Sequence record: NC_048112.1
Strand: one strand, 5' to 3'
Origin: Escherichia phage Skarpretter
DNA length: 42,042 bases
Position 1 is the first letter of the stretch; every line of letters starts with the position of its first letter. The translations under genes were made by a program, and so were the position numbers. Under the pieces are notes generated by a model, which saw only the letters and a list, made by a program, of their open reading frames with translations, ran no database searches and had not been told where the DNA came from. Shown in pieces: positions 1 through 41,795 of this stretch.

Positions 1-16
1 TAGCAAAAAGTGCTAT
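1..16 (-). promoter_or_regulatory. upstream half of the conserved promoter element (palindrome ATAGCAC-N4-TGCTA), truncated by window edge
   Basis: rc reads atagcactttttgcta, identical to the copy at 36884..36899; TATAGT half would lie beyond window start. Confidence 0.4.
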
Positions 17-42: not shown

Positions 43-769
43 ATTTGTAGTTGGCGTCAAAGACGGCTTGCGCAAAGCCCCGTGGGGTGCAACTGCGTAT
101 GTTCTTTGTGCGTAGCGACTTGCCGCCGCAATGCTTCCAGCCGGGGTTGTGTTTCACACCGTCCACTGGCTTACGCTCCGGCATGGCAAAGCCACCGCCG
201 CACCAAATCCCGGTGAGTTTGTTGTAGCCGTCGCGGGGCGGGTAGACTTCGGGGTAAAGCGGGTGCGCGTCGTCCTCCGGCAAATAGCCGCCGTACTCGT
301 TCGGGTGGAATTTATGATCCGGGCGTCTCCACATCGTATTGAGTTTGGAGATCGCTGGGTTCTCAAGCATCCACGCGGGCATGGCGTTTGCTTTGAAACC
401 ATCCAGCCACCAGCAACGCCGGGCGACGCGGTAAACCAGTTTTGCGAGGTCTACGGCTTTCTCCTGGAATAGCGGATCAACCTTCGCTTTTGCAGGCCAC
501 CAGCGCGCCCCGGTGCAAGTAAGATCGGTACACTCGGCAAAGCTGGCGATAAACACAACGCCCTGGCCCACTGTCTTTGCGATCTCCGTCGCCTGGTACG
601 GATTGAACGGAGTAAACCAGGTGCCAACGCGCACCAGTAACGGGTTATGCTCGTCGCGGTGTACGCCTGGCGCGTGCTGCCCGTCGAATAACCAGCATTC
701 AACCCCGGCATTAAGCCAGGGTTGTGCCATTATTCCCGTGCGATCGAATAGGAATACGGCCTTTTTCAT
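41..769 (-). CDS. hypothetical protein; weak C5-cytosine-MTase-like resemblance, unconfirmed
   Basis: 242-aa ORF. N-terminus LFDRTGI...AGVECWLFD resembles C5-MTase motif I/II region and WMLENP resembles the ENV motif, but no PCQ motif (FNPYQ at the equivalent place). TAATG coupling with upstream ORF. Confidence 0.45.
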   Translation of the reverse strand: MKKAVFLFDRTGIMAQPWLNAGVECWLFDGQHAPGVHRDEHNPLLVRVGTWFTPFNPYQATEIAKTVGQGVVFIASFAECTDLTCTGARWWPAKAKVDPLFQEKAVDLAKLVYRVARRCWWLDGFKANAMPAWMLENPAISKLNTMWRRPDHKFHPNEYGGYLPEDDAHPLYPEVYPPRDGYNKLTGIWCGGGFAMPERKPVDGVKHNPGWKHCGGKSLRTKNIRSCTPRGFAQAVFDANYK

Positions 770-12620: not shown

Positions 12621-12678
12621 TTTTAGTGCCTCATTAATGGGTTAGTGTCACGGGGTAGTGTATAGGCATTTGAGCCAC

Positions 12679-12699
12679 TAAAAAAGGGGCCGTAGCCCC
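12679..12699 (-). terminator. rho-independent terminator after ejection-protein gene
   Basis: Minus strand GGGGC-tacg-GCCCC followed by TTTTTT. Confidence 0.7.
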
Positions 12700-12704
12700 T
12701 TCGT

Positions 12705-24146: not shown

Positions 24147-24191
24147 ACTATAGCCCCATCCGTGGGGCTTGTCTTTAGCAAAAAGTGCTAT
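24147..24191 (-). promoter_or_regulatory. conserved promoter element driving the 24100 unit
   Basis: Minus strand ATAGCACttttTGCTAAA, 23 nt, TATAGT, ctcCTCACAttcac. Confidence 0.6.
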
Positions 24192-27152: not shown

Positions 27153-28793
27153 TTAGTAGTTGCTCGGTACGTTGTACCCGGAGTAATCCGGCTTGATCAC
27201 CTTCTGCGGCGGCTGCATCGTCATGATCAGGCTATCCGCCATGCCCGGCGATTTGATTTTCAGCTTTGTACGCATCTGAGGCTTAGGCATGCGGGAAAAC
27301 TTGCCGTTTGCGTTGTAGATCCTCGGAATGCGGCAAAGCTCCGCACGTAGCTTGCTCATGTACTCCCCGATCCCGTCGCTGTCCAGGCTGATCAACTCGT
27401 CCGGGTTGATGTAAAGCGTTTCGCCTTTGTCCAGTGCTGCTATCACCTGGGCGGTTTTCTCAAAGCGTCGGCGTAACAGGTAAATATCTTGCGATCCACG
27501 GTTGGCGAATACGTCGCTATTGCTGCTCGCGTTCTTCCCTTCGGTTGGGTTGTTCAGCCACTTATCAAGCTCTACGGGGGCGTCCGGGAATTTCACGCCG
27601 TCGCCTGCGTTGTAGCCCTCAACCATTACCGGAGTGTTGGCGTAAGCGTCAGTAAGCTGGCGGCGCAAGCCTGCGCCCAAACCTGCCCTATCCCACATCA
27701 GCGCGTCAACGTGCGCGGCTTTGGACTCTGCGATCGCCACGTCTGCGGCGTCGTTCGCGTCACCCTCCAGCCAGGACAAACCACGAGTAACCACGGAGCC
27801 GTGCCGGACGATAAACGCTTTGTTATCCTCGCCAACGTCTGCCGGGTCGAGTGCGCCAATCTTCATGCCGGACGGCTTAAACCCGATCCGCTTGTGGGCG
27901 TCGATCGCTGCATCAAACCATTCAGCCGGGATAATCGCATCCGGCACGGAGTCATTGAAAGCGCCTTTCCAGATATGATCGAACAACGCACGGGAAAGCG
28001 TTTTAAAGTCGTATTCCATTTCAGCCCGGAGCGACGCCGGAAACCACGGGTTTTTGTCGTAGTTCACTTTGATCACGAGGTGTAGATCGTCCTCGTAGAT
28101 CCCGTCTTTGTCCAGGGCGTCCGTAAACGGCACGATGAAACGTTTACTAAATGGATCTTCACTGCTGCCGGGGTTGGCGGTGAAGATCATATAGCCCCCT
28201 TCCTCACGCATGGTTGGGGTCAGCTTGCGTAATGACTCCTCGGAAAAGGTCTGCGCCTCCTCACCCCAAAAGCGTTTAAACCCATAGGACGATTTCACGC
28301 CGTCCGGGTCGCGGGCCATACCTTTAAAGACGTGCAAGCCGCCGTTGACGTGGCGGATCTCGTCTTTCATCACTTCGAAACCGTCATACCCGGCACGCTC
28401 GATCATCTGCGAAAGTAGCGGGTGTACGGAGTATTTAATAGCGGTCTGAAACTCGCGGAGGTTCATCACCTTTACGGCGTCGTCGTTCACGTCACCGTTA
28501 AGGATCATCCCGGTTGAGTCGGATTTACCGGAGCCACGGCCCCCGATCACGATGTTAAAGCGTTTGGGGCGCGTTAAGAGCGGCTCCAGCACTTCGGGGA
28601 TCGTGACGTGGTGAGGCTTATCGGTTTCCACCCAGCGGTGGCCCTTTTTGGTGATGTTCTTTACGTGTTCCGGCAAGCCGTTTGCGCCGGGTCGGTAAAT
28701 GCCATAAACCGTGCGGGTGTAGGTGCTAATGTGTCGCGCTTTGGCCTCTGCTGTCGCCATGCGCTGCATGATCTGCTTTAGGTTACGCCCCAT
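27153..28793 (-). CDS. terL: terminase large subunit
   Basis: 546 aa; Walker A IVIGGRGSGKSDS, acidic nuclease-domain residues; directly upstream of portal. Confidence 0.85.
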   Translation of the reverse strand: MGRNLKQIMQRMATAEAKARHISTYTRTVYGIYRPGANGLPEHVKNITKKGHRWVETDKPHHVTIPEVLEPLLTRPKRFNIVIGGRGSGKSDSTGMILNGDVNDDAVKVMNLREFQTAIKYSVHPLLSQMIERAGYDGFEVMKDEIRHVNGGLHVFKGMARDPDGVKSSYGFKRFWGEEAQTFSEESLRKLTPTMREEGGYMIFTANPGSSEDPFSKRFIVPFTDALDKDGIYEDDLHLVIKVNYDKNPWFPASLRAEMEYDFKTLSRALFDHIWKGAFNDSVPDAIIPAEWFDAAIDAHKRIGFKPSGMKIGALDPADVGEDNKAFIVRHGSVVTRGLSWLEGDANDAADVAIAESKAAHVDALMWDRAGLGAGLRRQLTDAYANTPVMVEGYNAGDGVKFPDAPVELDKWLNNPTEGKNASSNSDVFANRGSQDIYLLRRRFEKTAQVIAALDKGETLYINPDELISLDSDGIGEYMSKLRAELCRIPRIYNANGKFSRMPKPQMRTKLKIKSPGMADSLIMTMQPPQKVIKPDYSGYNVPSNY

Positions 28794-29235
28794 CGAATAG
28801 CGCCCCCATTGCCTTAAAACCTTCTGTTGCTACCAGTTCAGTAAAATATGCCTGGTGCTCGTCGTTGTTGGTGTCCAGCCGCACGCCGTGGTGCTCAAAG
28901 GTCATGTTGACAATATGCACGGCCTCGTGAACAACGCGCCCGCAAAGCACGTTGGGATCGGGGTGGTGGTGGAAGCCCGCCAGGATCAGATAAAGATCAT
29001 CATCCGTGAAATATTCCGTAACCTTTGCGCCGCACGGCCCGCCCTCGGCTGGATCGTAGTCAATCCCGGCAACCTTTAACGGCTCCGGGTTGTCAATGTC
29101 ATACCACACAACGATCGTGCGGTAGGGCTGGCACGGCGTCCACTGTAACCGGGCCTTTTTCAGCCCGGCGAAAGTGTTAGCTTTGCGCTTCGTCGTCTGC
29201 ATTTGCTGCGGCTTTGTGCGCTTCGGCTTGTTCAT
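28783..29235 (-). CDS. hypothetical protein with HExxH motif (possible zinc metallopeptidase-like)
   Basis: ~150 aa from ATG at 29235; basic N-terminus, GFHHHPDPN...VVHEAVHIV...EHH; located between putative terS and terL. Confidence 0.5.
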   Translation of the reverse strand: MNKPKRTKPQQMQTTKRKANTFAGLKKARLQWTPCQPYRTIVVWYDIDNPEPLKVAGIDYDPAEGGPCGAKVTEYFTDDDLYLILAGFHHHPDPNVLCGRVVHEAVHIVNMTFEHHGVRLDTNNDEHQAYFTELVATEGFKAMGALFDGA

Positions 29236-29734
29236 CGATCCGGTTCTCCAGTTCTGCCAGGCGTTCAAGGATGCCGCTGATCTCCTGCACCTCTGCGCCT
29301 TTCTTGAAAATGTCGATCAGGGAGTGCGCCACGTCTACGGCGATCTCACCTGCTGCAACGGCTTTCATGATCGCGTCGATCCGCTCGTTCGGCGTCCAGT
29401 TCGGATCAAAGTCAAATTGCACTTGCGGCATGGTGGGGCGGGAGTACGGGATCAGGCGTGCCAAAATATCCCGGTACATGCTCGGATCGCGCATCGCCAT
29501 TTCGATCCCGCGTTGGATAAATGCGGCCTCGGTTAAGGTCTGCTCTTTGCGCTCGCCTGTCTCCGGGTCGGTGGTCTGGTATTTGACCGTTTTCAACGCC
29601 TCAAGTAACAGGGTGCGGAATTGTGGCCCGCGTGGTGCGCGTCCGGTTGGCTTGTTGTCAGGGCCAAAGGGCTTGCCTTTGCCGCGTCCTGCTTTGCCGC
29701 CCTCGATCAGCGGGTCTTTATCGTGCTGGCTCAT
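29177..29734 (-). CDS. putative terminase small subunit
   Basis: 185 aa; Gly/Lys/Pro-rich basic N-terminus, coiled-coil C-terminus; position upstream of terL; no diagnostic motif. Confidence 0.45.
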   Translation of the reverse strand: MSQHDKDPLIEGGKAGRGKGKPFGPDNKPTGRAPRGPQFRTLLLEALKTVKYQTTDPETGERKEQTLTEAAFIQRGIEMAMRDPSMYRDILARLIPYSRPTMPQVQFDFDPNWTPNERIDAIMKAVAAGEIAVDVAHSLIDIFKKGAEVQEISGILERLAELENRIDEQAEAHKAAANADDEAQS

Positions 29735-29797: not shown

Positions 29798-30109
29798 TCA
29801 ATGGCGAGCGCCTACCGGGCCAACGGTGCCCGTGCTGAGGTCGCGGGCCAACTCCTCCGGCGTGAAGTCGCGCAACGGTGCGCCACGGTGGTTAAACGCC
29901 AGGGGATCGGCGCTCTTGGCCTTGTAGCCGTTTTTGGCCTTGCCTTTGCCGATAGCGTTACGGCTGCACACCACGCAACGCCCGCTGGCAGTATAGCGCC
30001 CCTCGTTGTGCCCCATCTCGCACCCGCGCCCGTCATTGTATCGGGGCAATCCTCTTAACCTCGCCTCGGCTTTCGTCCTGGGCATGATTGCGATCGGGTT
30101 GTCCGCCAT
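29798..30109 (-). CDS. hypothetical small protein, possible zinc ribbon
   Basis: 103 aa with GCEMGH...CVVC. Confidence 0.4.
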   Translation of the reverse strand: MADNPIAIMPRTKAEARLRGLPRYNDGRGCEMGHNEGRYTASGRCVVCSRNAIGKGKAKNGYKAKSADPLAFNHRGAPLRDFTPEELARDLSTGTVGPVGARH

Positions 30110-30751: not shown

Positions 30752-31053
30752 GCTTTAGCGTCCTGTTTTGCGAGGTGGTAGGAGCGGCGGGCGACTTTCT
30801 CCGCCTGCTTGCGGGTGAGGCCCATCGACATTAAGCGGACTGTGCCGCGTGCAATTAGTCGGGCTTTGCGCTCGCGCTCTGTCTCCTCGGCCTGGGCGTA
30901 CCCGGTCAGGCTGCGTTGCATGGCTGCGCGGTTGCCAGTGATCCCGGCGTCGCGTGCCATGATCTTACGGACTTCACCAGCCACGGCTGGATCGTATGGC
31001 TCGGCGGGTAAGCTGCTGCGGATCGCCGCTGCAAGTGGTGTGGTGCTGGTCAT
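30748..31053 (-). CDS. hypothetical protein
   Basis: 101-aa ORF, coupled to downstream ORF. Confidence 0.45.
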   Translation of the reverse strand: MTSTTPLAAAIRSSLPAEPYDPAVAGEVRKIMARDAGITGNRAAMQRSLTGYAQAEETERERKARLIARGTVRLMSMGLTRKQAEKVARRSYHLAKQDAKA

Positions 31054-31090
31054 GTTGTAGCCTCATGCTCAAGTGATTTCATGGTGTAGT

Positions 31091-31120
31091 GTATAACAAG
31101 GGGCCGCATTTGCAAGCCCC
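31091..31120 (-). terminator. possible terminator or stem-loop
   Basis: GGGGC-11 nt loop-GCCCC; weak U-tract. Confidence 0.3.
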
Positions 31121-31142
31121 ATCCTCCCAGCGTGCCGGGCTT

Positions 31143-32117
31143 TTATTCGCTCGGCTGGCTGTGCTCAATGTATCGGCGCTCGCTGGCGATCAGGTCGTCA
31201 GTAACCCAAATCATGCCGCGATGGTATGCGGCTGTAAACGCCTCGGATAGCTCGTAACCGTTCTCAACGGCTTTCGTGATTACGTCCAGGTCTGCGCGTC
31301 GCTGGGCTTGATTCTCGCGCACCTTTGCCATGAGTTGATAAGCGATATGGATCGGGTTTGGCCCGGTTGGTGCTGGCGGTAGCGTCACGGTGCGCACTGG
31401 CCCGCCGTCATACTCGATCGCGCTCTCGATCTCCGCCTCAACTGTGGTTGTGCCCTCGATCGGGATCTGGCGCTCGTCTGCCTGCACGCCACCAGCGCCC
31501 GCCAGCTTGCGGAGGTCTTGCGCCAGTTCAGCGCCCCATGCCTCCCACTCGTCCGGCAATCCGTTTGCGCTGCCCTCGATATGCACCGCCAGCTTATACG
31601 CTGCCTCGCGCATGTTGCTTACCTGCTCGCGCCAGGTGTCGTTGTCGGTCTGGATCTGCGTGCGGATCTCCTCAACCTCGGCGCGTAGCTCTTTGATCAC
31701 GGTGTCACGCTGCCCGCAACGAATGCGCATAGCTTCGCGGTCGTCGTTGGCCTGGTTAAGCGATTTCAGGTAGCGTTGCGCCTCGGCGTGCTCCTGGGTG
31801 ATCTGCTTGTTGGCTGATCGCAATTGGGCTTTGGTGTACTCGTGCGCTTTCTCCTCGGCCTTAATGCACGCTTGCGCGTCCTGCATACGGTCGTACACGT
31901 CGCGGCGGTCTGCTAACCAATCTTGCTTGTTGTGGAGGTTGATCAGGTTAAACACCGTGAAGCCCACAACGGAGGAAAACACCAGCGCAAAGAATACCAG
32001 CCAGCCAGCCGCGCCAGTGAGCCAGGTTAAGCCGCCCGCCAGCATACAGACCAGGCACAACACAAACGCCGCGCCACCAGCGATCGCAGACCATTTCAAG
32101 CCGTTATTATTAAACAT
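31143..32117 (-). CDS. membrane protein with N-terminal TM helices and long coiled-coil domain
   Basis: 324 aa; two hydrophobic segments then Gln/Glu/Arg-rich heptad-like region; AGGAG SD; preceded by hairpin terminator and TATAAT box. Confidence 0.6.
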   Translation of the reverse strand: MFNNNGLKWSAIAGGAAFVLCLVCMLAGGLTWLTGAAGWLVFFALVFSSVVGFTVFNLINLHNKQDWLADRRDVYDRMQDAQACIKAEEKAHEYTKAQLRSANKQITQEHAEAQRYLKSLNQANDDREAMRIRCGQRDTVIKELRAEVEEIRTQIQTDNDTWREQVSNMREAAYKLAVHIEGSANGLPDEWEAWGAELAQDLRKLAGAGGVQADERQIPIEGTTTVEAEIESAIEYDGGPVRTVTLPPAPTGPNPIHIAYQLMAKVRENQAQRRADLDVITKAVENGYELSEAFTAAYHRGMIWVTDDLIASERRYIEHSQPSE

Positions 32118-32204
32118 GTTAATTATTCTCCTGCTTATTATATCGAAAGCTGGCAGACGTAAAGCCAGCTATACACTTTAGCGTCATGCTGTACATGATC
32201 GCCG

Positions 32205-32238
32205 TACATAACAATAAACCGGGCATCAAAACCCGGTT
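32205..32238 (-). terminator. rho-independent terminator
   Basis: Minus strand AACCGGG-8 nt loop-CCCGGTT followed by TTATTGTTATG. Confidence 0.5.
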
Positions 32239-32314
32239 AGGCAAAAAGTGCTATATGTTCATCAGCAACGCGATCCACAAAAACCAAAGAAGCATTAACG
32301 TTGATCCGTCCATC

Positions 32315-32482
32315 TTAAAAGCTCCTCGTGACCAGCCACGATCCCAGCCACGACAACAAAAACGACGCCAGCGCCAGGAATGGGATCACCGTCCATTCAT
32401 TCAGCCCATACGCCGCAACCAATCCGCCAGCCACCAGGGCAACGGCAATCACTCCGGCAATAACGCAAGATTCAACACCCAT
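32315..32482 (-). CDS. small membrane protein
   Basis: ~55 aa from ATG at 32482 (AGGAGG SD); hydrophobic. Confidence 0.45.
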   Translation of the reverse strand: MGVESCVIAGVIAVALVAGGLVAAYGLNEWTVIPFLALASFLLSWLGSWLVTRSF

Positions 32483-32588
32483 CGTAAAACCTCCTGTAAC
32501 GCGCTCTAAGCGCCTCAAACGAAAAAGGCAGGCAATCACCTTACCCGCCCCCAAATTCCCGCGCATACGTGAGGACACGCGGCGACGT

Positions 32589-32774
32589 TTACGCCTCGCT
32601 CCTGTCCGTTTGCTTTTGCGCTGCTTTTCGGAAGATGTGCGACGAAATGACGCCGCCTATCACATCCACGCTTATTGCCAGCGCTGCGGCGCTCCACCAG
32701 TCGAACGAGTAGCGGATCAGTGCTGCCAGTACGACAAAGCGGATAAGCCAGTAAGGCCAAAACCGTTTGATCAT
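32589..32774 (-). CDS. small membrane protein
   Basis: ~61 aa from ATG at 32774; one TM helix, basic C-terminus. Confidence 0.45.
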   Translation of the reverse strand: MIKRFWPYWLIRFVVLAALIRYSFDWWSAAALAISVDVIGGVISSHIFRKAAQKQTDRSEA

Positions 32775-32877
32775 CGTTTCCCCCTTTTGCGTTCTGAGTC
32801 GATCAGGGCTTTGGCAAATAGCGTTAAACCAATGCCAGCCACCAGCCCCAACACGAACATAACAAACAAGCCTGCGA

Positions 32878-33093
32878 TCATAAGATACCCTCCAGATTAA
32901 GCGCCACCAGTGCGCCCCATATACCCAGCGTTGCGCCACCTCCGACAACGCACCAGACGATCATTAAGCAATTCCACAACCCGTACTTTTCGATCCAGTA
33001 GTCGCGCCACTCGGTGAAACGGTTTGTTTTCTTCTCCGGCGTTGGTGGTGTGCCACGATGATCCGGGAAATTGCCTGCGATAACGTTACTCAT
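32878..33093 (-). CDS. small membrane protein
   Basis: 71 aa, GAGGAG SD, C-terminal hydrophobic helix. Confidence 0.5.
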   Translation of the reverse strand: MSNVIAGNFPDHRGTPPTPEKKTNRFTEWRDYWIEKYGLWNCLMIVWCVVGGGATLGIWGALVALNLEGIL

Positions 33094-33401
33094 ACTTTAT
33101 TCACTCCTCAATGAATGTACAACATCGCACAAAAGTTGTTTTGTCTTTTCGTGCTGTCGGCCTTTACCGCTTCCGGCAATCGCTAACATCGCCAACGCAC
33201 AATAAGCCCGCAAGGGCGTTTGGGTGCGGTGGTGTGCGTAGCGAGTGGCGAGCGTAGCGAGTTAACACGATAGTGTTTTATATATATAAGGGCGCACTCT
33301 TGTTGTTGTGCATATTAAACCCTTGATTTATATAGCCTTTTCACCACTCCCGCACAATAATAAGTTTTGTGCGGGTTATGTTATTGAAATACAAAGAAAA
33401 A

Positions 33402-34973
33402 TCAGCGTTCAGCCAGCGGCGGCGGCGATGCGTCGTTAGCCGTCAAAATCTCCTCGCCGTCATTGTTGATAAACGAGCGGATCAGCTGCTTTTTGATCGC
33501 GTTCTCGATCGAGCGCTTGATCTGGTATGGCGTTTTCGCGGTGCGCTCCGCCATTTGGTTTGTGGTGTCCATGCGTTCATGCTGCCCGCCGCGTGCCATG
33601 AGGAAATCGATCACGTCCTGCTCGCTGTTGCTCGGCCTGGTGAGTCTCGGATCTGGCTTGTTCTTCGACTCGCCGCGCTGCGCTTTCTTCTGCTCCTCCT
33701 GCTGCGCTACCAGTTCAGCGGCTAACGTCGCCTCGTCCACCAGTTCGCACGCGTTCAGGTAGCCACCACAAAACAGCGGGTCAATCGGGTTAAGTCCTTT
33801 CAGCGGCTGCGCTGGGCGGATCGAATCCTCAAACTCTGCGAGATATTCCGCCCGGTGCGCTTCTGCTTCGTCGTCCGGGAAGATCTGCATTGTCCGTTTA
33901 GTCAGGCGCAAGAGTTGGGCGATCCCCCCACCACGGCGCTTGCCTGCTGCCATGATGATTTTATCCGGCTGGGTTTTGTCCTGCGTGAGCGAAAACGTTT
34001 TCCAAACCGCACCCTTTGCCGCGCCACCTCCGCGTGACTCCAGCACGAGATAAGGCGATCGCTCGGCCTCCTTGCTTACGTGGGGAATGAAGATCCCGCA
34101 CGCTCCCAGCGCCAGGGCAAAGCGATAACCGCAAAACGTAATGTACTGCTGATCGTCGTTGCTGTTTTCGTCCAGGGGTTTACCGTTGCGCTCGGCGCTG
34201 GATAGGTGAAAACTCTTTGAGTCATAAACAACCATGCACACCTGGCGATCCCCGGCAAAGTCTTTGATCTGGCGGATCTGGCGTAATGCGTTCTCACCCC
34301 ATACCGGGCGATCGAGTTGTACGACGCGCTCAACCTCGCGCCCGTCCGGGCCGATCTCTTTCACGGTCTTAACTTTGGTTGTGTCGGTCAGCGCTGCGGG
34401 GTGCTCGCAGATCAGGACGTGATCCAGGATGTTTTCGCCCCACTCCAGTTGCCAGGCGGAAAGGCAGTTAGTGACGGTTTCGGCGTCCTCGGTAAAAAAC
34501 ACGCTGATCCCTTTCTTCACCATGAAAGCATCCAGGAAAGGTCTACCCGTTGCCACGCACGCCGCCAGCATGGACAAGAGCGTAGTTTTGCCCACGCCTG
34601 GCCCGGCGTTGATCTCGTTGATCGTGTTCATGTTAAACAGGTATTGCACAAACGGCTTTGGGATCTTCGGTTTCGGGTTCTCAATGAATACGGAGGCGGG
34701 CTTACGCTCCGGCTTTGGCTGCTGCGGGCCTGCGTCCTCGTTGTCCGGCTCGTCCACCTGCTCGGAGTGATCGGCAAGGCGTGCTAACTCCGCGTCGCTA
34801 TAGTCGGGAGCCTGCGCCGCTAACCACTCCTCCGGCATGTCCGGCACGGTGTCGCCCAACTCTCCCCAGGTCTGCATGTCCTCGTAATCCGGCTCGAATT
34901 GCTCCGGCTCCGGGGTTGGCTCCTGCTGCTGTAAAGAGCCGTTGCCACGGTGTTTTGTGGGGTCGAATTTCAT
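33402..34973 (-). CDS. P-loop NTPase (RecA/DnaB-like Walker A), possible replicative ATPase/helicase
   Basis: 523 aa; acidic disordered N-terminus, Walker A NAGPGVGKTTL, Walker B-like VCMVVYDS; first gene of leftward operon. Confidence 0.65.
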   Translation of the reverse strand: MKFDPTKHRGNGSLQQQEPTPEPEQFEPDYEDMQTWGELGDTVPDMPEEWLAAQAPDYSDAELARLADHSEQVDEPDNEDAGPQQPKPERKPASVFIENPKPKIPKPFVQYLFNMNTINEINAGPGVGKTTLLSMLAACVATGRPFLDAFMVKKGISVFFTEDAETVTNCLSAWQLEWGENILDHVLICEHPAALTDTTKVKTVKEIGPDGREVERVVQLDRPVWGENALRQIRQIKDFAGDRQVCMVVYDSKSFHLSSAERNGKPLDENSNDDQQYITFCGYRFALALGACGIFIPHVSKEAERSPYLVLESRGGGAAKGAVWKTFSLTQDKTQPDKIIMAAGKRRGGGIAQLLRLTKRTMQIFPDDEAEAHRAEYLAEFEDSIRPAQPLKGLNPIDPLFCGGYLNACELVDEATLAAELVAQQEEQKKAQRGESKNKPDPRLTRPSNSEQDVIDFLMARGGQHERMDTTNQMAERTAKTPYQIKRSIENAIKKQLIRSFINNDGEEILTANDASPPPLAER

Positions 34974-36431: not shown

Positions 36432-36887
36432 ATGAAACCACAAGAGATCAAAAAGGCGGGCATCTTCTCAAAGGATGATATTCACTGCTTCACTGACTGC
36501 GGCTACAACTGCAAGGCAAAGGTAAGGGCTGATCTTGAGGCGCATTACGCGCCAATCGCTGCGGCGCTGGGTAACGGCTGGCGCGTTAACATCTGGCACA
36601 ACGGCGGCTGGCACGCTAACCTGGCGCATGATGAATCACAATTTTACCTGAGCGATCGAGCGGTGCGCGGCGGTATCAGTGCAATGAAGGTGGACGCCGA
36701 TCGGTTTGAGGACAACGTAAACCGCTTTGAGGTGTTCAATTACGAATACCCGGAGGGCACCAGCCAGGTTTGGGTGTACGGTAACGATCCGAAAGACGCG
36801 ATCCGCAACGCCTTTAACGCCGTGTCGGAGCGGGTAGTAGCCTACATGGTGCAACAACAAAAGATCCTGGACGCTTTCCCCGGATAG
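36432..36887 (+). CDS. hypothetical protein
   Basis: 151 aa, Trp/Asn/Gly-rich; stop codon lies inside next promoter palindrome. Confidence 0.55.
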   Translation: MKPQEIKKAGIFSKDDIHCFTDCGYNCKAKVRADLEAHYAPIAAALGNGWRVNIWHNGGWHANLAHDESQFYLSDRAVRGGISAMKVDADRFEDNVNRFEVFNYEYPEGTSQVWVYGNDPKDAIRNAFNAVSERVVAYMVQQQKILDAFPG

Positions 36888-36927
36888 CACTTTTTGCTAA
36901 ACGCTCCTCGTAAATACTTGGTATAGT
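36884..36927 (+). promoter_or_regulatory. conserved promoter element
   Basis: ATAGCACttttTGCTAAA, 22 nt, TATAGT, tctTTCACAccaac, before ATG 36959. Confidence 0.6.
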
Positions 36928-38462: not shown

Positions 38463-38822
38463 ATGAGGGATCTCCGAATGTCAGACACGCCGCTAACCCT
38501 GCATCAGTTATTCATGATGTATCGAACTGAGTTAGGGTATTCATTCATCGCCGCCGTTGTGGCGGTCTTTCGTCACTGGCAATTGCGGCACCCTTTCCGG
38601 GATATGGTAACGAGCGCCGTTATCTGCGCCGCTTTTGCTTTCGGTATGAAATCAATTTTAGAATTTTTCAAAATCGACGGCGGGTTATGGGGTTATCTGG
38701 CCTCGGTCATGCTGGGCTATATGGGTGTCGAAACCCTGTTAGACTACGCCAGCGAAAAGATCCCATTCCTGCGCCGTTCCCCCCGTAAAACTGAGGAGTT
38801 AAACGACAATGGCAAAGCGTGA
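38463..38822 (+). CDS. S: holin, lambda S-like, with dual-start motif
   Basis: 119 aa; begins MRDLRM (two Met separated by charged residues, like lambda S107/S105); TM segments; LGYMGVETLLDYASEKI resembles lambda S IGYIGTDSIGSLIKRF. Confidence 0.7.
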   Translation: MRDLRMSDTPLTLHQLFMMYRTELGYSFIAAVVAVFRHWQLRHPFRDMVTSAVICAAFAFGMKSILEFFKIDGGLWGYLASVMLGYMGVETLLDYASEKIPFLRRSPRKTEELNDNGKA

Positions 38823-39282
38823 AGTCACACCACAACGCAAGGCGTTTTTGGACGCGATCGCCGTGGGCGAGGGCACCGATAATGGACGCCAGCAAACCGC
38901 CAATCATGGCTATGACGTGATTGTAGGCGGTAGCCTGTTTACTGACTACAGCGATCACCCGCGTAAGCTGGTGGTGCTCAATCCCAAACTGAAAAGCACG
39001 GCGGCGGGCCGCTATCAGCTTTTGAGCCGCTATTACGATTCGTATAAAAAATCCCTGGGCCTGCCGGACTTCTCGCCGGAAAGCCAGGATCAGATCGCCC
39101 TCCAGCAAATCGCGGAGCGCGGGGCGCTGGCGGACGTGGACGCGGGCCGGATCAAAGACGCCGTGAAGAAATGCCGCACTATTTGGGCCTCCATGCCGGG
39201 ATCGCCATACGGGCAACGCACGGAGACTATGGCGGACTTTCTGGAATACTTCACCGCTGCGGGCGGTAAGGTAGCCGCGTAA
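38809..39282 (+). CDS. R: endolysin, lambda R-like lytic transglycosylase
   Basis: 157 aa, near-colinear with lambda R: QRKAFLD, EGTDNGRQ, NHGYDVIVGG, LFTDYSDHPRKLV, LNPKLKST, AGRYQLLSR. Confidence 0.9.
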   Translation: MAKREVTPQRKAFLDAIAVGEGTDNGRQQTANHGYDVIVGGSLFTDYSDHPRKLVVLNPKLKSTAAGRYQLLSRYYDSYKKSLGLPDFSPESQDQIALQQIAERGALADVDAGRIKDAVKKCRTIWASMPGSPYGQRTETMADFLEYFTAAGGKVAA

Positions 39283-39833
39283 TGTGGGGCGCGATCCTGG
39301 CCCTCCTGCGCCGATACTGGAAGCCGATCGCCGTAATCCTCCTCGTGCTGCTGGCGCTGGGGGGATCTTACCTTAAAGGCTCGGCTGATAAGGATCAGGA
39401 ATGGCAAGCGCGATGGACACAACGCGATCTGGACGATTCCACCCAGAAAGGGATCGATAATGTAGCCGCCCGGATAATTGAACAAGGCCGGGCCATTGAA
39501 CGCCAGGAGGCGATCGAGGATGCACAAAAACGGGAAGCCGCCGCGCTGGCTGCTGCTGATCGGTTGCGTGGTACTGTTGACGGCCTGCAACAACTCGCCA
39601 ACAAATACGCGGCCCAACTGGACGCCCAGCGGGCAACCACTGATCTTGCCGCTGCCGTCGCAAGCAAAACAAAAGCCCAGGGGGCCGGAGTGCTCGCCGT
39701 CATGCTCGGAAGCGTTGCAAAGGAAGCTGAATATTATGCTAAACGATCTGACGAAAGCTACGACGCCGGGCTAACCTGCGAGCGGCTTTACGAGTCGGTG
39801 AGGGTGACGCAAGAAAAAGTCAAGGGGCCATAA
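39282..39833 (+). CDS. Rz: i-spanin (Rz-like)
   Basis: 183 aa; N-terminal TM helix, periplasmic coiled-coil; TAATG coupling with R. Confidence 0.7.
   Translation: MWGAILALLRRYWKPIAVILLVLLALGGSYLKGSADKDQEWQARWTQRDLDDSTQKGIDNVAARIIEQGRAIERQEAIEDAQKREAAALAAADRLRGTVDGLQQLANKYAAQLDAQRATTDLAAAVASKTKAQGAGVLAVMLGSVAKEAEYYAKRSDESYDAGLTCERLYESVRVTQEKVKGP
39520..39774 (+). CDS. Rz1: o-spanin (Rz1-like) lipoprotein embedded in +1 frame of Rz
   Basis: ~84 aa from internal ATG; signal peptide with lipobox (LIGC / LTAC), Pro-rich mature region. Confidence 0.55.
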   Translation: MHKNGKPPRWLLLIGCVVLLTACNNSPTNTRPNWTPSGQPLILPLPSQAKQKPRGPECSPSCSEALQRKLNIMLNDLTKATTPG

Positions 39834-41419: not shown

Positions 41420-41795
41420 GGGTTAACGCCTCCGCGTGCCGGACAACCCGATCGCACGTCTCCACATCAAACAACCCTATGTGGCATTGCGATTTGGGGA
41501 TCTCCAGGAGTTTAGCGAGCCACGCGTAAGCCTGACTCCGTTTCTTCCATCCGTTGCGCCAGATAGGATCAAAGGCCGCATGAGCCTTGTTACGGGCGCG
41601 TTTTGTCGCTTTGTCCGCCGTATTCCCCAGCGGGCGATCGGTGTCTTTGTGGCAACCCACGCTGGCACCGCACGGGCAAATGTAGCATTTCAGGTGATGC
41701 AAATCCGGGCGTTTTGGGTAAAGCGCTGCGGCACTGCTCAAAACTGCGGAGGCAACGCCCCCGCAAATTGCACAATCAATGGCTTTATTTTCCAT
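41397..41795 (-). CDS. zinc-finger (Cys-rich) hypothetical protein
   Basis: ~133 aa from ATG at 41795; CAICGG...CYICPCG...CH Cys clusters. Confidence 0.5.
   Translation of the reverse strand: MENKAIDCAICGGVASAVLSSAAALYPKRPDLHHLKCYICPCGASVGCHKDTDRPLGNTADKATKRARNKAHAAFDPIWRNGWKKRSQAYAWLAKLLEIPKSQCHIGLFDVETCDRVVRHAEALTRALQKRQ

Follow-up and report, generated by a model that had tools for sequence, protein, structure and literature searches.

Membrane organization of replication or packaging has so far been documented mainly for phi29-type phages, and phi29 p16.7 combines an N-terminal anchor, a coiled coil, and a small helical C-domain in the cytoplasm. In lambdoid phages, morons are accessory genes that are inserted between conserved ones and bring a terminator or promoter of their own, many lambdoid phages carry their lysis genes just upstream of the terminase genes, and most superinfection exclusion genes act from prophages. 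In phi29, p16.7 and p1 provide membrane anchorage of phage DNA replication (PMC4974454). P22 SieA is a protein of 162 to 164 amino acids (aa) with three predicted transmembrane (TM) segments and a cytoplasmic FxRYPxEAxxFNK motif; its gene is expressed from a prophage and has gene 16 on one side and the tailspike gene on the other (PMC10883804). Here, we compare these systems with a cluster of five genes, gp40 to gp44, that encode putative inner-membrane proteins in Escherichia phage Skarpretter (MK105855). The window analyzed is the whole Skarpretter genome (42,042 bp, G+C content of 55.8%; PMC7552041), and all feature coordinates are window positions.

Judged from its sequence, this locus appears to be a lineage-specific inner-membrane gene set that contains a variable slot. 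Genes gp44, gp43, gp42, and gp40 retain their order and coding character in related genomes, and gp41 occupies the slot. Tentatively, and at clearly less than even chances, we propose that the conserved part faces the cytoplasm and serves as a membrane scaffold or tether in replication or packaging, with gp41 as an exchangeable accessory.

Gene content, conservation, and predicted products

Skarpretter is a virulent podophage of Escherichia coli K-12 with a P22-type portal. P22-type ejection proteins are annotated in its relative C130_2, and Skarpretter open reading frames (ORFs) agree with these in size and order; on these grounds Skarpretter probably carries P22-type ejection proteins as well. 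Exact matches among NCBI proteins identified p324 as HOU67_gp40, p61 as HOU67_gp42, p36 as HOU67_gp43, and p71 as HOU67_gp44. All five products of the cluster are labelled "hypothetical protein" in NCBI, and the literature yielded no functional data on genes of Skarpretter, C130_2, or Sortsne. The closest records in the BLAST collection were C130_2 (Hungariovirus) and "Stutzerimonas" phage STP9 (unverified).

The cluster has a helicase-like gene on one side and the genes for the TerS-like protein and TerL on the other (Table 1). A good Shine-Dalgarno (SD) sequence stands in front of each of its five genes, and ATGA start-stop overlaps couple gp44 to gp43 and gp43 to gp42. A first-pass annotation made from the sequence had described three small ORFs encoding one or two TM segments each, and these (gp41, gp42, and gp44) are borne out by both the ORF calls and hydropathy. 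As a description of the cluster, its count of three genuine small genes needs amendment, in that a fourth, gp43, had been overlooked and gp41 lies in a variable slot. Likewise, the cluster does lie upstream of the packaging genes as described there, with five genes between gp40 and TerL, and it is correctly set outside the S/R/Rz lysis cassette, which is on the plus strand (Table 1).

Eight related phage contigs were retrieved via gp40 homologues and, with Skarpretter, make up a comparison set of nine genomes. The gene order is the same in all eight contigs, each of which contains gp44, gp43, and gp42 (gene callers had skipped gp42 in two), and gp44, gp42, and gp40 are syntenic across the set. 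Variable sites in the nine genomes are enriched at third codon positions, and the median ratios of nonsynonymous to synonymous substitution rates (dN/dS; Table 1) make the constraint on gp40 the weakest among the neighborhood genes tested. By this comparison, gp44, gp43, gp42, and gp40 can be taken as protein-coding genes under purifying selection. It could be objected that the small ORFs are very short (36 to 71 aa), belong to no database family, and might be chance hydrophobic frames rather than genes. We regard that reading as refuted, with next to no likelihood left to it, because of the conserved synteny and the dN/dS values of 0.2 to 0.28 across nine genomes; the start-stop coupling, the SD sequences, and the excess of third-position variation also stand against it.

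Table 1. Positions of genes and sequence elements in the Skarpretter genome, in order along the window from the helicase-like gene to TerL, followed by features elsewhere
Feature	Position	Strand	Evidence or remark	Median dN/dS
AAA_25 primase/helicase-like gene	33402..34973	-	Hairpin after the gene, then conserved non-coding DNA (308 bp)	0.33
Conserved non-coding block upstream of gp44	33094..33401	-		
Helicase-gene hairpin	33349..33375	-	In the block upstream of gp44	
Palindrome TTATATATATAA	33278..33289		Only copy in genome	
Tandem 16-nt repeat	33229..33260		In the block upstream of gp44	
gp44 (p71)	32878..33093	-	ORF; SD GAGGAG	0.24
gp43 (p36), 36 aa	32771..32881	-	ORF; SD GGAGG	0.20
gp42 (p61)	32589..32774	-	ORF	0.28
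Terminator-like hairpin with T tract, between gp42 and slot	32524..32552	-	Called by terminator scan	
gp41 (p55)	32315..32482	-	ORF; SD AGGAGG	
ATAGCACTTTTTG copy	32242..32254	-	Downstream slot edge, upstream of gp40	
Terminator-like hairpin AACCGGG-N-CCCGGTT with TATTGTT, after slot	32217..32238	-	Scan	
Inverted repeat AGCTGGC-N9-GCCAGCT	32148..32170	-	Overlaps candidate gp40 promoter	
TATAAT box	32137..32142	-	Ends 20 nt before gp40 ATG	
gp40 (p324)	31143..32117	-	ORF	0.42
GC hairpin GGGGCTTGCAAATGCGGCCCC after gp40	31100..31120	-	Followed by TTGTTATACA and the next gene's leader	
Downstream genes p101, p179, Zn-ribbon p103, TerS-like p185, HExxH p161, TerL, in this order	to 27153	-		
Zn-ribbon-like p103	29798..30109	-	CxxC; phrog_1081	
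TerS-like p185		-		0.145
HExxH p161	28783..29268	-	Between TerS-like gene and TerL	
TerL	27153..28793	-		0.075
ATAGCACTTTTTG, further exact copies	4..16; 24179..24191; 36884..36896	-; -; +		
Lysis cassette	38463..39833	+	Holin, endolysin, Rz	
Rz	39282..39833	+	Embedded Rz1 candidate with lipobox at 39520 (regex scan of Rz)	
Position equivalent to P22 sieA	12621..12704		Gap of 84 bp without ORF	

Kyte-Doolittle profiles gave one TM-grade segment each in gp44 and gp43 and two each in gp41 and gp40, and one clear and one weaker segment in gp42. The TM segments are Gly/Ala-rich and GxxxG-like. In gp44, a conserved N-domain of about 40 aa (FPDHRGTPP...W.DYW.EKYG.WN) precedes a single Gly/Ala-rich C-terminal TM segment (window 45-63), making this a putative tail-anchored membrane protein whose N-domain is predicted to be cytoplasmic. 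gp43 has an N-terminal TM segment (Kyte-Doolittle KD19 value of 2.54) and a basic C-tail, KALIDSERKRGKR, and gp42 is a putative TM hairpin of 61 aa, also with a basic C-tail, in which the intramembrane residues R12 and D37 are invariant.

The largest product, gp40, had been described in the first-pass annotation as a membrane-anchored coiled-coil protein of 324 aa, a description that its two TM segments and its AlphaFold2 (AF2) model support. AF2 with the family alignment, together with hydropathy, placed a TM hairpin at about residues 9-60 (AF2 helices 5-27 and 34-60). The second of these helices belongs to a long one that is continuous over residues 34-186, with a confidence score (pLDDT) of about 85; beyond the TM hairpin it spans about 125 residues, or about 18 nm, and 61% of its a/d positions are hydrophobic versus 35% of positions overall. 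A further helix (189-208) leads to a linker (211-254) that is disordered in the AF2 model and length-variable and mosaic in the family alignment, and the protein ends in a conserved three-helix C-domain (255-320). Folded alone, the C-domain reached a pLDDT of 92.8; it is acidic (isoelectric point [pI] of 5.5) and has 12 invariant residues, including N17, Q18, R21, R22, G35, and Y36. C84 of gp40 is invariant as well. Comparison of gp40 and of its C-domain with solved and predicted structures gave no meaningful match.

Homologues of gp40 numbered 27 in 5.8 billion clustered proteins; they come from assemblies and metagenomes, about half of them on phage-sized contigs (about 40 to 43 kb) and the rest on shorter ones. 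A gp40 profile retrieved nine hits among 1.84 billion representatives, all of them members of the gp40 family or fragments thereof, and a single fragment in IMG/VR. No gp40 relative was found in GTDB among 185,579 species genomes, and the entry for gp40 in BFVD is 100% identical.

The first-pass annotation had also proposed topology prediction as a check, and this placed TM segments in all of the products and, by the positive-inside rule, most of the protein mass in the cytoplasm. Throughout the cluster, basic residues flank the predicted cytoplasmic sides, whereas the loops predicted to be periplasmic are short and carry no charge. In gp40, basic residues in the vicinity of the hairpin are limited to K8 ahead of the first TM segment and K64, R71, and R72 past the second, and the loop between the segments, GGLTWLTGAAG, is uncharged, so that the rule predicts both ends to be cytoplasmic. 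The same rule predicts an N-in orientation for gp44, a C-in orientation for gp43, and both ends inside for gp42 and gp41. Periplasmic exposure would then come to about 1 to 8 residues per protein, with nearly all soluble mass facing the cytoplasm.

Distribution across genera and the gp41 slot

Searching 50,697 phage records with tblastn gave matches to the cluster only in C130_2 and STP9, in keeping with the earlier statement that it has no P22 counterpart; for gp42, this search gave no match beyond Skarpretter-like genomes. By sequence comparison, the families of the cluster appear to be confined to Skarpretter-, Hungario-, Sortsne-, and Murrayvirus-type phages. The most widespread is that of gp44, with relatives in C130_2 (gp03, 83 aa), STP9, Sortsne (gp62, 55 aa), and the Murrayviruses (62 aa); in all four genera these proteins are tail-anchored and encoded by the first gene after the AAA_25 gene. 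Each of the eight clusters found with a gp44 profile lies within the same phage group. gp43 and gp42 are limited to Skarpretter-like genomes among those compared, where they are fixed in all nine, and both are absent from Hungariovirus and Sortsnevirus.

The STP9 record (OR754315.1) is flagged UNVERIFIED_ORG. It is collinear with coliphage C130_2 in the cluster region, and its gp44 and gp40 homologues appear, by eye, very similar to those of C130_2. The assignment of STP9 to a Stutzerimonas host looks doubtful.

gp40 itself is common to the Skarpretter-like genomes and Hungariovirus and is not found in Sortsne- or Murrayviruses. In the latter two, the gp40 position is filled by a soluble helical protein of 312 to 319 aa, and the stop codon of its gene overlaps the start of a gene for a tail-anchored protein of 74 to 93 aa. 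Such helical and tail-anchored pairs are gp52/gp51 in Sortsne, gp48/gp47 in IME_EC2, gp05/gp04 in Lumpael, and gp50/gp49 in IME279. The Sortsne pair resembles gp40 in its place upstream of the Zn-ribbon, TerS-like, HExxH, and TerL genes and in combining a helical protein of about 315 aa with a membrane anchor. It differs in that the anchor is a separate tail-anchored protein, and the overall profile-profile similarity between Sortsne gp52 and gp40 was not significant. Two anchor designs at the same position imply that membrane attachment of a helical protein of about 320 aa has been kept in four genera.

A shared module was found within these otherwise dissimilar proteins. The gp40 family member P0019 (contig L002, 6001-7095) has a 48-aa linker module at residues 229-276, which shares 56% identity with the C-terminal end of the gp52 family (E value of 7e-15). 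The module follows the pattern WIVWEW...VEI...G..N.LE..VV.W..V..YR, and gp52-family copies are encoded at L015 4501-5460 and L013 38036-38986; Skarpretter gp40 has only a remnant. The module represents domain shuffling between positional analogues. A different relationship, in which p101, p179, and the gp40 C-domain would be fused in Sortsne gp52, was considered and rejected: comparison of the C-domain by hhalign and hmmsearch was not significant, with E values of 0.006 to 0.19 and a probability below 6%. The match between p179 and Sortsne gp52 was only suggestive (probability of 29%, E value of 6e-4). In Sortsne, the same interval also holds about nine small accessory genes, some of which encode proteins with two TM segments.

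The product of gp41 is a 55-aa protein with two TM segments that lies inside the 83-aa HOU67_gp41 of GenBank. The 28 extra codons of the GenBank frame (to 32566) cross a terminator-like hairpin and an SD sequence, and this frame is not kept in relatives. For these reasons the GenBank start is probably wrong, and the 55-aa start is more likely. The gp41 slot of relatives contains at least four unrelated soluble genes (63 to 70 aa), so that gp41 is not a conserved member of the cluster; altogether, five types of occupant were seen in the nine Skarpretter-like genomes, with further types in C130_2 and STP9, and the DNA on either side of the slot is conserved. Homologues of gp41 (64 to 85% identity) were found on a few other contigs, with four clusters in a profile search, and one of these homologues (64% identity) fills the same slot in a Hungariovirus-like contig.

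The slot is bounded by two terminator-like hairpins (Table 1). The one between gp42 and the slot occurs in two variants (GGCGGG/CCTGCC and GGCGGGG/CCCCGCC), both of which keep the stem and the T run, and the one after the slot is nearly invariant in eight genomes. By this sequence evidence, gp41 is best treated as a separate, moron-type exchangeable accessory gene. It fits an accessory or exclusion pattern and is the best candidate in the cluster for an exclusion or anti-defense role, and the hairpin-bounded slot offers a ready place to seek new genes of both kinds. As a separate observation, the slot protein of L006 (4472-4669) and L010 (5680-5877), …RPADEDDIAEIGRRV.DDI, resembles by eye Sortsne gp60 (L013 41137-41325), the counterpart sequence of which is …RPATEDDVAALGRKVDDDLA; this likeness suggests that accessory cassettes may be exchanged between genera.

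Regulatory elements, genome end, and neighboring genes

At the downstream edge of the slot, upstream of gp40, stands a copy of the motif ATAGCACTTTTTG. Four exact copies occur in the window (Table 1), a number not reached by any shuffle, and all of them lie at gene boundaries in the local direction of transcription (extended form, ATAGCACTTTTTG(C/T)TAAA). C130_2 has seven copies, including one upstream of its gp40 homologue. In each case a variable spacer, which sometimes contains a GC hairpin, leads to a TATAGT-like box and then to a CA-rich leader with an SD sequence. The motif looks like a phage-specific promoter or regulator box and may resemble the T4 MotA box.

Between the slot and gp40 there is also a perfect inverted repeat that is unique in the window and could be an operator or a second hairpin. 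Its arms are conserved in the compared genomes, apart from a mismatch at the first base in one of them. The TATAAT box ascribed to gp40 in the first-pass annotation is present; however, it appears to be a poor promoter candidate because it lies only 20 nt from the ATG, so that a transcript starting from it would lose most of the SD sequence, and because it is not conserved, being replaced by TAACAAT or TAACAGT in three of the nine genomes (L002, L003, and L010). A sigma-70 promoter scan found no more sites than in shuffles. As to the terminator that had been assigned to gp40, a GC hairpin is indeed conserved after the gene, with a compensatory change from C-G to U-A between genome groups, but its T tract is weak and the terminator scan did not call it.

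The non-coding block upstream of gp44 also holds a conserved ACAGCACGAAAAG, and the palindrome and the tandem repeat within it (Table 1) are conserved in all relatives compared. An Rfam scan of 30900..33500 returned no family, and RNAalifold found no covariation support for RNA structure upstream of gp44. The block could be a late-type promoter with a leader or a replication origin beside the helicase-like gene.

In C130_2, a 285-bp terminal direct repeat (1-285 and 41491-41775) spans the 3' end of the gp40 homologue and the spacer downstream, and it takes in the position homologous to the Skarpretter hairpin after gp40. The homologous stretch of Skarpretter is at about 31046..31330. By analogy, the physical end of the Skarpretter genome may lie just after gp40, in which case gp40 would be split from the packaging genes on the linear genome.

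Two genes in the downstream region deserve mention in their own right. p161 has an HExxH motif (VHEAVH...NNDEHQAY) that is kept in Sortsne gp47 (AHEVIH...NNDEPEAY), and it looks like an unannotated metallopeptidase-like protein within the packaging module. The Zn-ribbon-like p103 is conserved in all four genera, where its gene directly precedes that of the TerS-like protein.

Proposed function and comparison with known systems

Scans of the five proteins and their neighbors against Pfam, PHROG, NCBIfam, and PADLOC gave nothing above threshold, and the sub-threshold hits of gp40 to DUF3450, SMC, JetC, ZorA, and HpsJ were rejected as coiled-coil noise. In the proposed membrane scaffold or tether, Gly/Ala-rich TM helices would assemble in the membrane, gp40 would oligomerize via its helix of about 125 residues, and the oligomer would present the conserved C-domain to a cytoplasmic partner. 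gp44 and gp40, perhaps with gp43 and gp42, would together form a membrane-bound structure serving a phage process, of which replication or packaging would be the likeliest because genes for these flank the cluster. We favor this proposal because the conserved members belong to the fixed core of these genomes and lie between the helicase-like gene and those for terminase, because the link of gp44 to the helicase gene holds in four genera, because membrane attachment of the gp40 type survives a change of architecture, and because the order of parts in gp40 resembles that of phi29 p16.7. Several observations weigh against it. In sequence and fold comparisons, gp40 resembled neither p16.7 nor any protein that binds DNA or acts in replication, and the acidic C-domain (pI of 5.5) argues against direct binding of DNA by gp40. 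The dN/dS of gp40 (0.42 versus 0.075 for TerL) and its mosaic linker are more typical of genes for interaction with hosts or other phages. Since gp43 and gp42 are absent from the sister genera Hungariovirus and Sortsnevirus, the replication and packaging modules common to these phages can do without them, and gene neighborhood is in general weak evidence in mosaic phage genomes.

A broader form of the proposal, which we put forward as doubtful, is that Skarpretter-, Hungario-, Sortsne-, and Murrayviruses, as a group of virulent podophages with P22-type virions, keep a dedicated inner-membrane platform that holds replication or packaging at the membrane. Its two components would be the tail-anchored protein whose gene immediately follows the helicase-like one and a helical protein of about 320 aa, the latter either fused to a TM hairpin or separately anchored. 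To our knowledge, no membrane-organizing system of this sort has been reported from such Gram-negative tailed phages. If the scaffold proves real, small coliphages would organize replication or packaging at the inner membrane, and five orphan genes that occur in four genera would be given roles. As leads, the most useful features are the conservation of gp44 across genera, the retention of membrane attachment in proteins at the position of gp40, and the slot for exchangeable cassettes.

Alternatively, the proteins might act in superinfection exclusion or the blocking of injection, roles suggested in the first-pass annotation, by disturbing, as SieA does, the ejection-protein conduit of incoming P22-type virions, which we consider unlikely. 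This would be in line with the P22-type ejection proteins annotated in C130_2 and matched by Skarpretter ORFs, the membrane nature of all five products, the variable, hairpin-bounded, moron-typical slot of gp41, and the mosaic linker and relatively high dN/dS of gp40. However, neither similarity to SieA nor its motif or genomic position was found, and the minimal periplasmic exposure predicted for the proteins speaks against a periplasmic blocker. Moreover, gp44 is fixed in four genera and gp40 in two rather than being strain-variable, and gp43 and gp42 are fixed in every Skarpretter-like genome compared. These phages also look virulent, with no relative in 185,579 species genomes, which removes the prophage setting of most exclusion genes, and PADLOC gave no hit beyond the coiled-coil noise. 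A role in host take-over or anti-defense, whereby the proteins would bind and inhibit host inner-membrane proteins such as proteases or those of transport or division (interference with cell division being a further suggestion of the first-pass annotation) or counter membrane-acting abortive infection like T4 rII, seems improbable to about the same degree. The invariant intramembrane R12 and D37 of the small hydrophobic gp42 fit such a role, as do the GxxxG-like, Gly/Ala-rich TM segments, the hot spot for accessory genes within the cluster (about nine small accessory genes in the Sortsne interval), and the relaxed constraint on gp40. Yet searches of Pfam, PHROG, NCBIfam, and PADLOC revealed no homology to a known inhibitor or anti-defense protein, no target can be named, and the conservation of gp44 beside the helicase gene would be left unexplained.

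Lysis timing, in which small holin-, antiholin-, or pinholin-like proteins would modulate the canonical holin, is in our judgment highly improbable. In physical terms, gp42 and gp43 do loosely match what is described for holins of classes II and III, being small TM proteins with a charged C-tail, a trait that is not holin-specific, and the cluster lies upstream of terminase genes. Against this, a complete lysis cassette is encoded 5.7 kb away on the other strand, comprising a holin (phrog_126), an endolysin (phrog_90) that is soluble and lacks a SAR domain, and Rz (phrog_312) with its embedded Rz1 candidate, so that the minus-strand cluster is not beside it. Pfam, PHROG, and NCBIfam gave no holin family match for the small proteins, no dual-start motif was found, and C130_2 and Sortsne, which carry the same lysis cassette, lack both gp43 and gp42.

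Compared one by one with the described systems, the cluster shares parts of several. Like SieA, its products are predicted phage inner-membrane proteins of a phage with P22-type ejection proteins. In contrast to SieA, they measure 36, 55, 61, 71, and 324 aa, each has one or two TM segments, and they show no sequence similarity to it; FxRYPxEAxxFNK and its sub-patterns were absent from all six frames of the window. The position corresponding to sieA, from the gene 16 homologue to the tailspike gene, is a gap without an ORF (Table 1) about 18 kb from the cluster. gp42 is like class II holins and pinholins (S21) in its size, two TM segments, predicted N-in/C-in topology, and basic C-tail, and unlike them in having no adjacent endolysin, no dual start, and no family match. 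gp40 shares with the i-spanin Rz a long coiled coil behind a membrane anchor and a conserved Cys (C84), and it differs in its two TM segments and predicted cytoplasmic C-terminus, since i-spanins have one N-terminal TM segment and a coiled-coil domain in the periplasm; reading by eye of the ORFs in and around gp40 found no o-spanin partner with a lipobox.

Closer parallels are offered by the lambdoid morons and by phi29. As with the morons, conserved hairpins delimit the gp41 slot, its occupants are unrelated among genomes that are collinear elsewhere, and the gp41 gene is also found in the same slot of another genus; the difference is that the phages bearing this slot appear virulent. With phi29 p16.7, gp40 shares the predicted order of its parts and a gene position near replication genes. 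It has two TM segments versus one, 324 aa versus about 130 aa, and an acidic C-domain, no sequence or fold similarity to p16.7 was found in it, and Skarpretter, unlike phi29, is without protein-primed replication. By analogy, then, the likeness of gp40 to p16.7 would point to a possible mode of action, that of a membrane-anchored coiled coil holding a small helical domain in the cytoplasm, rather than to membership of the same family.

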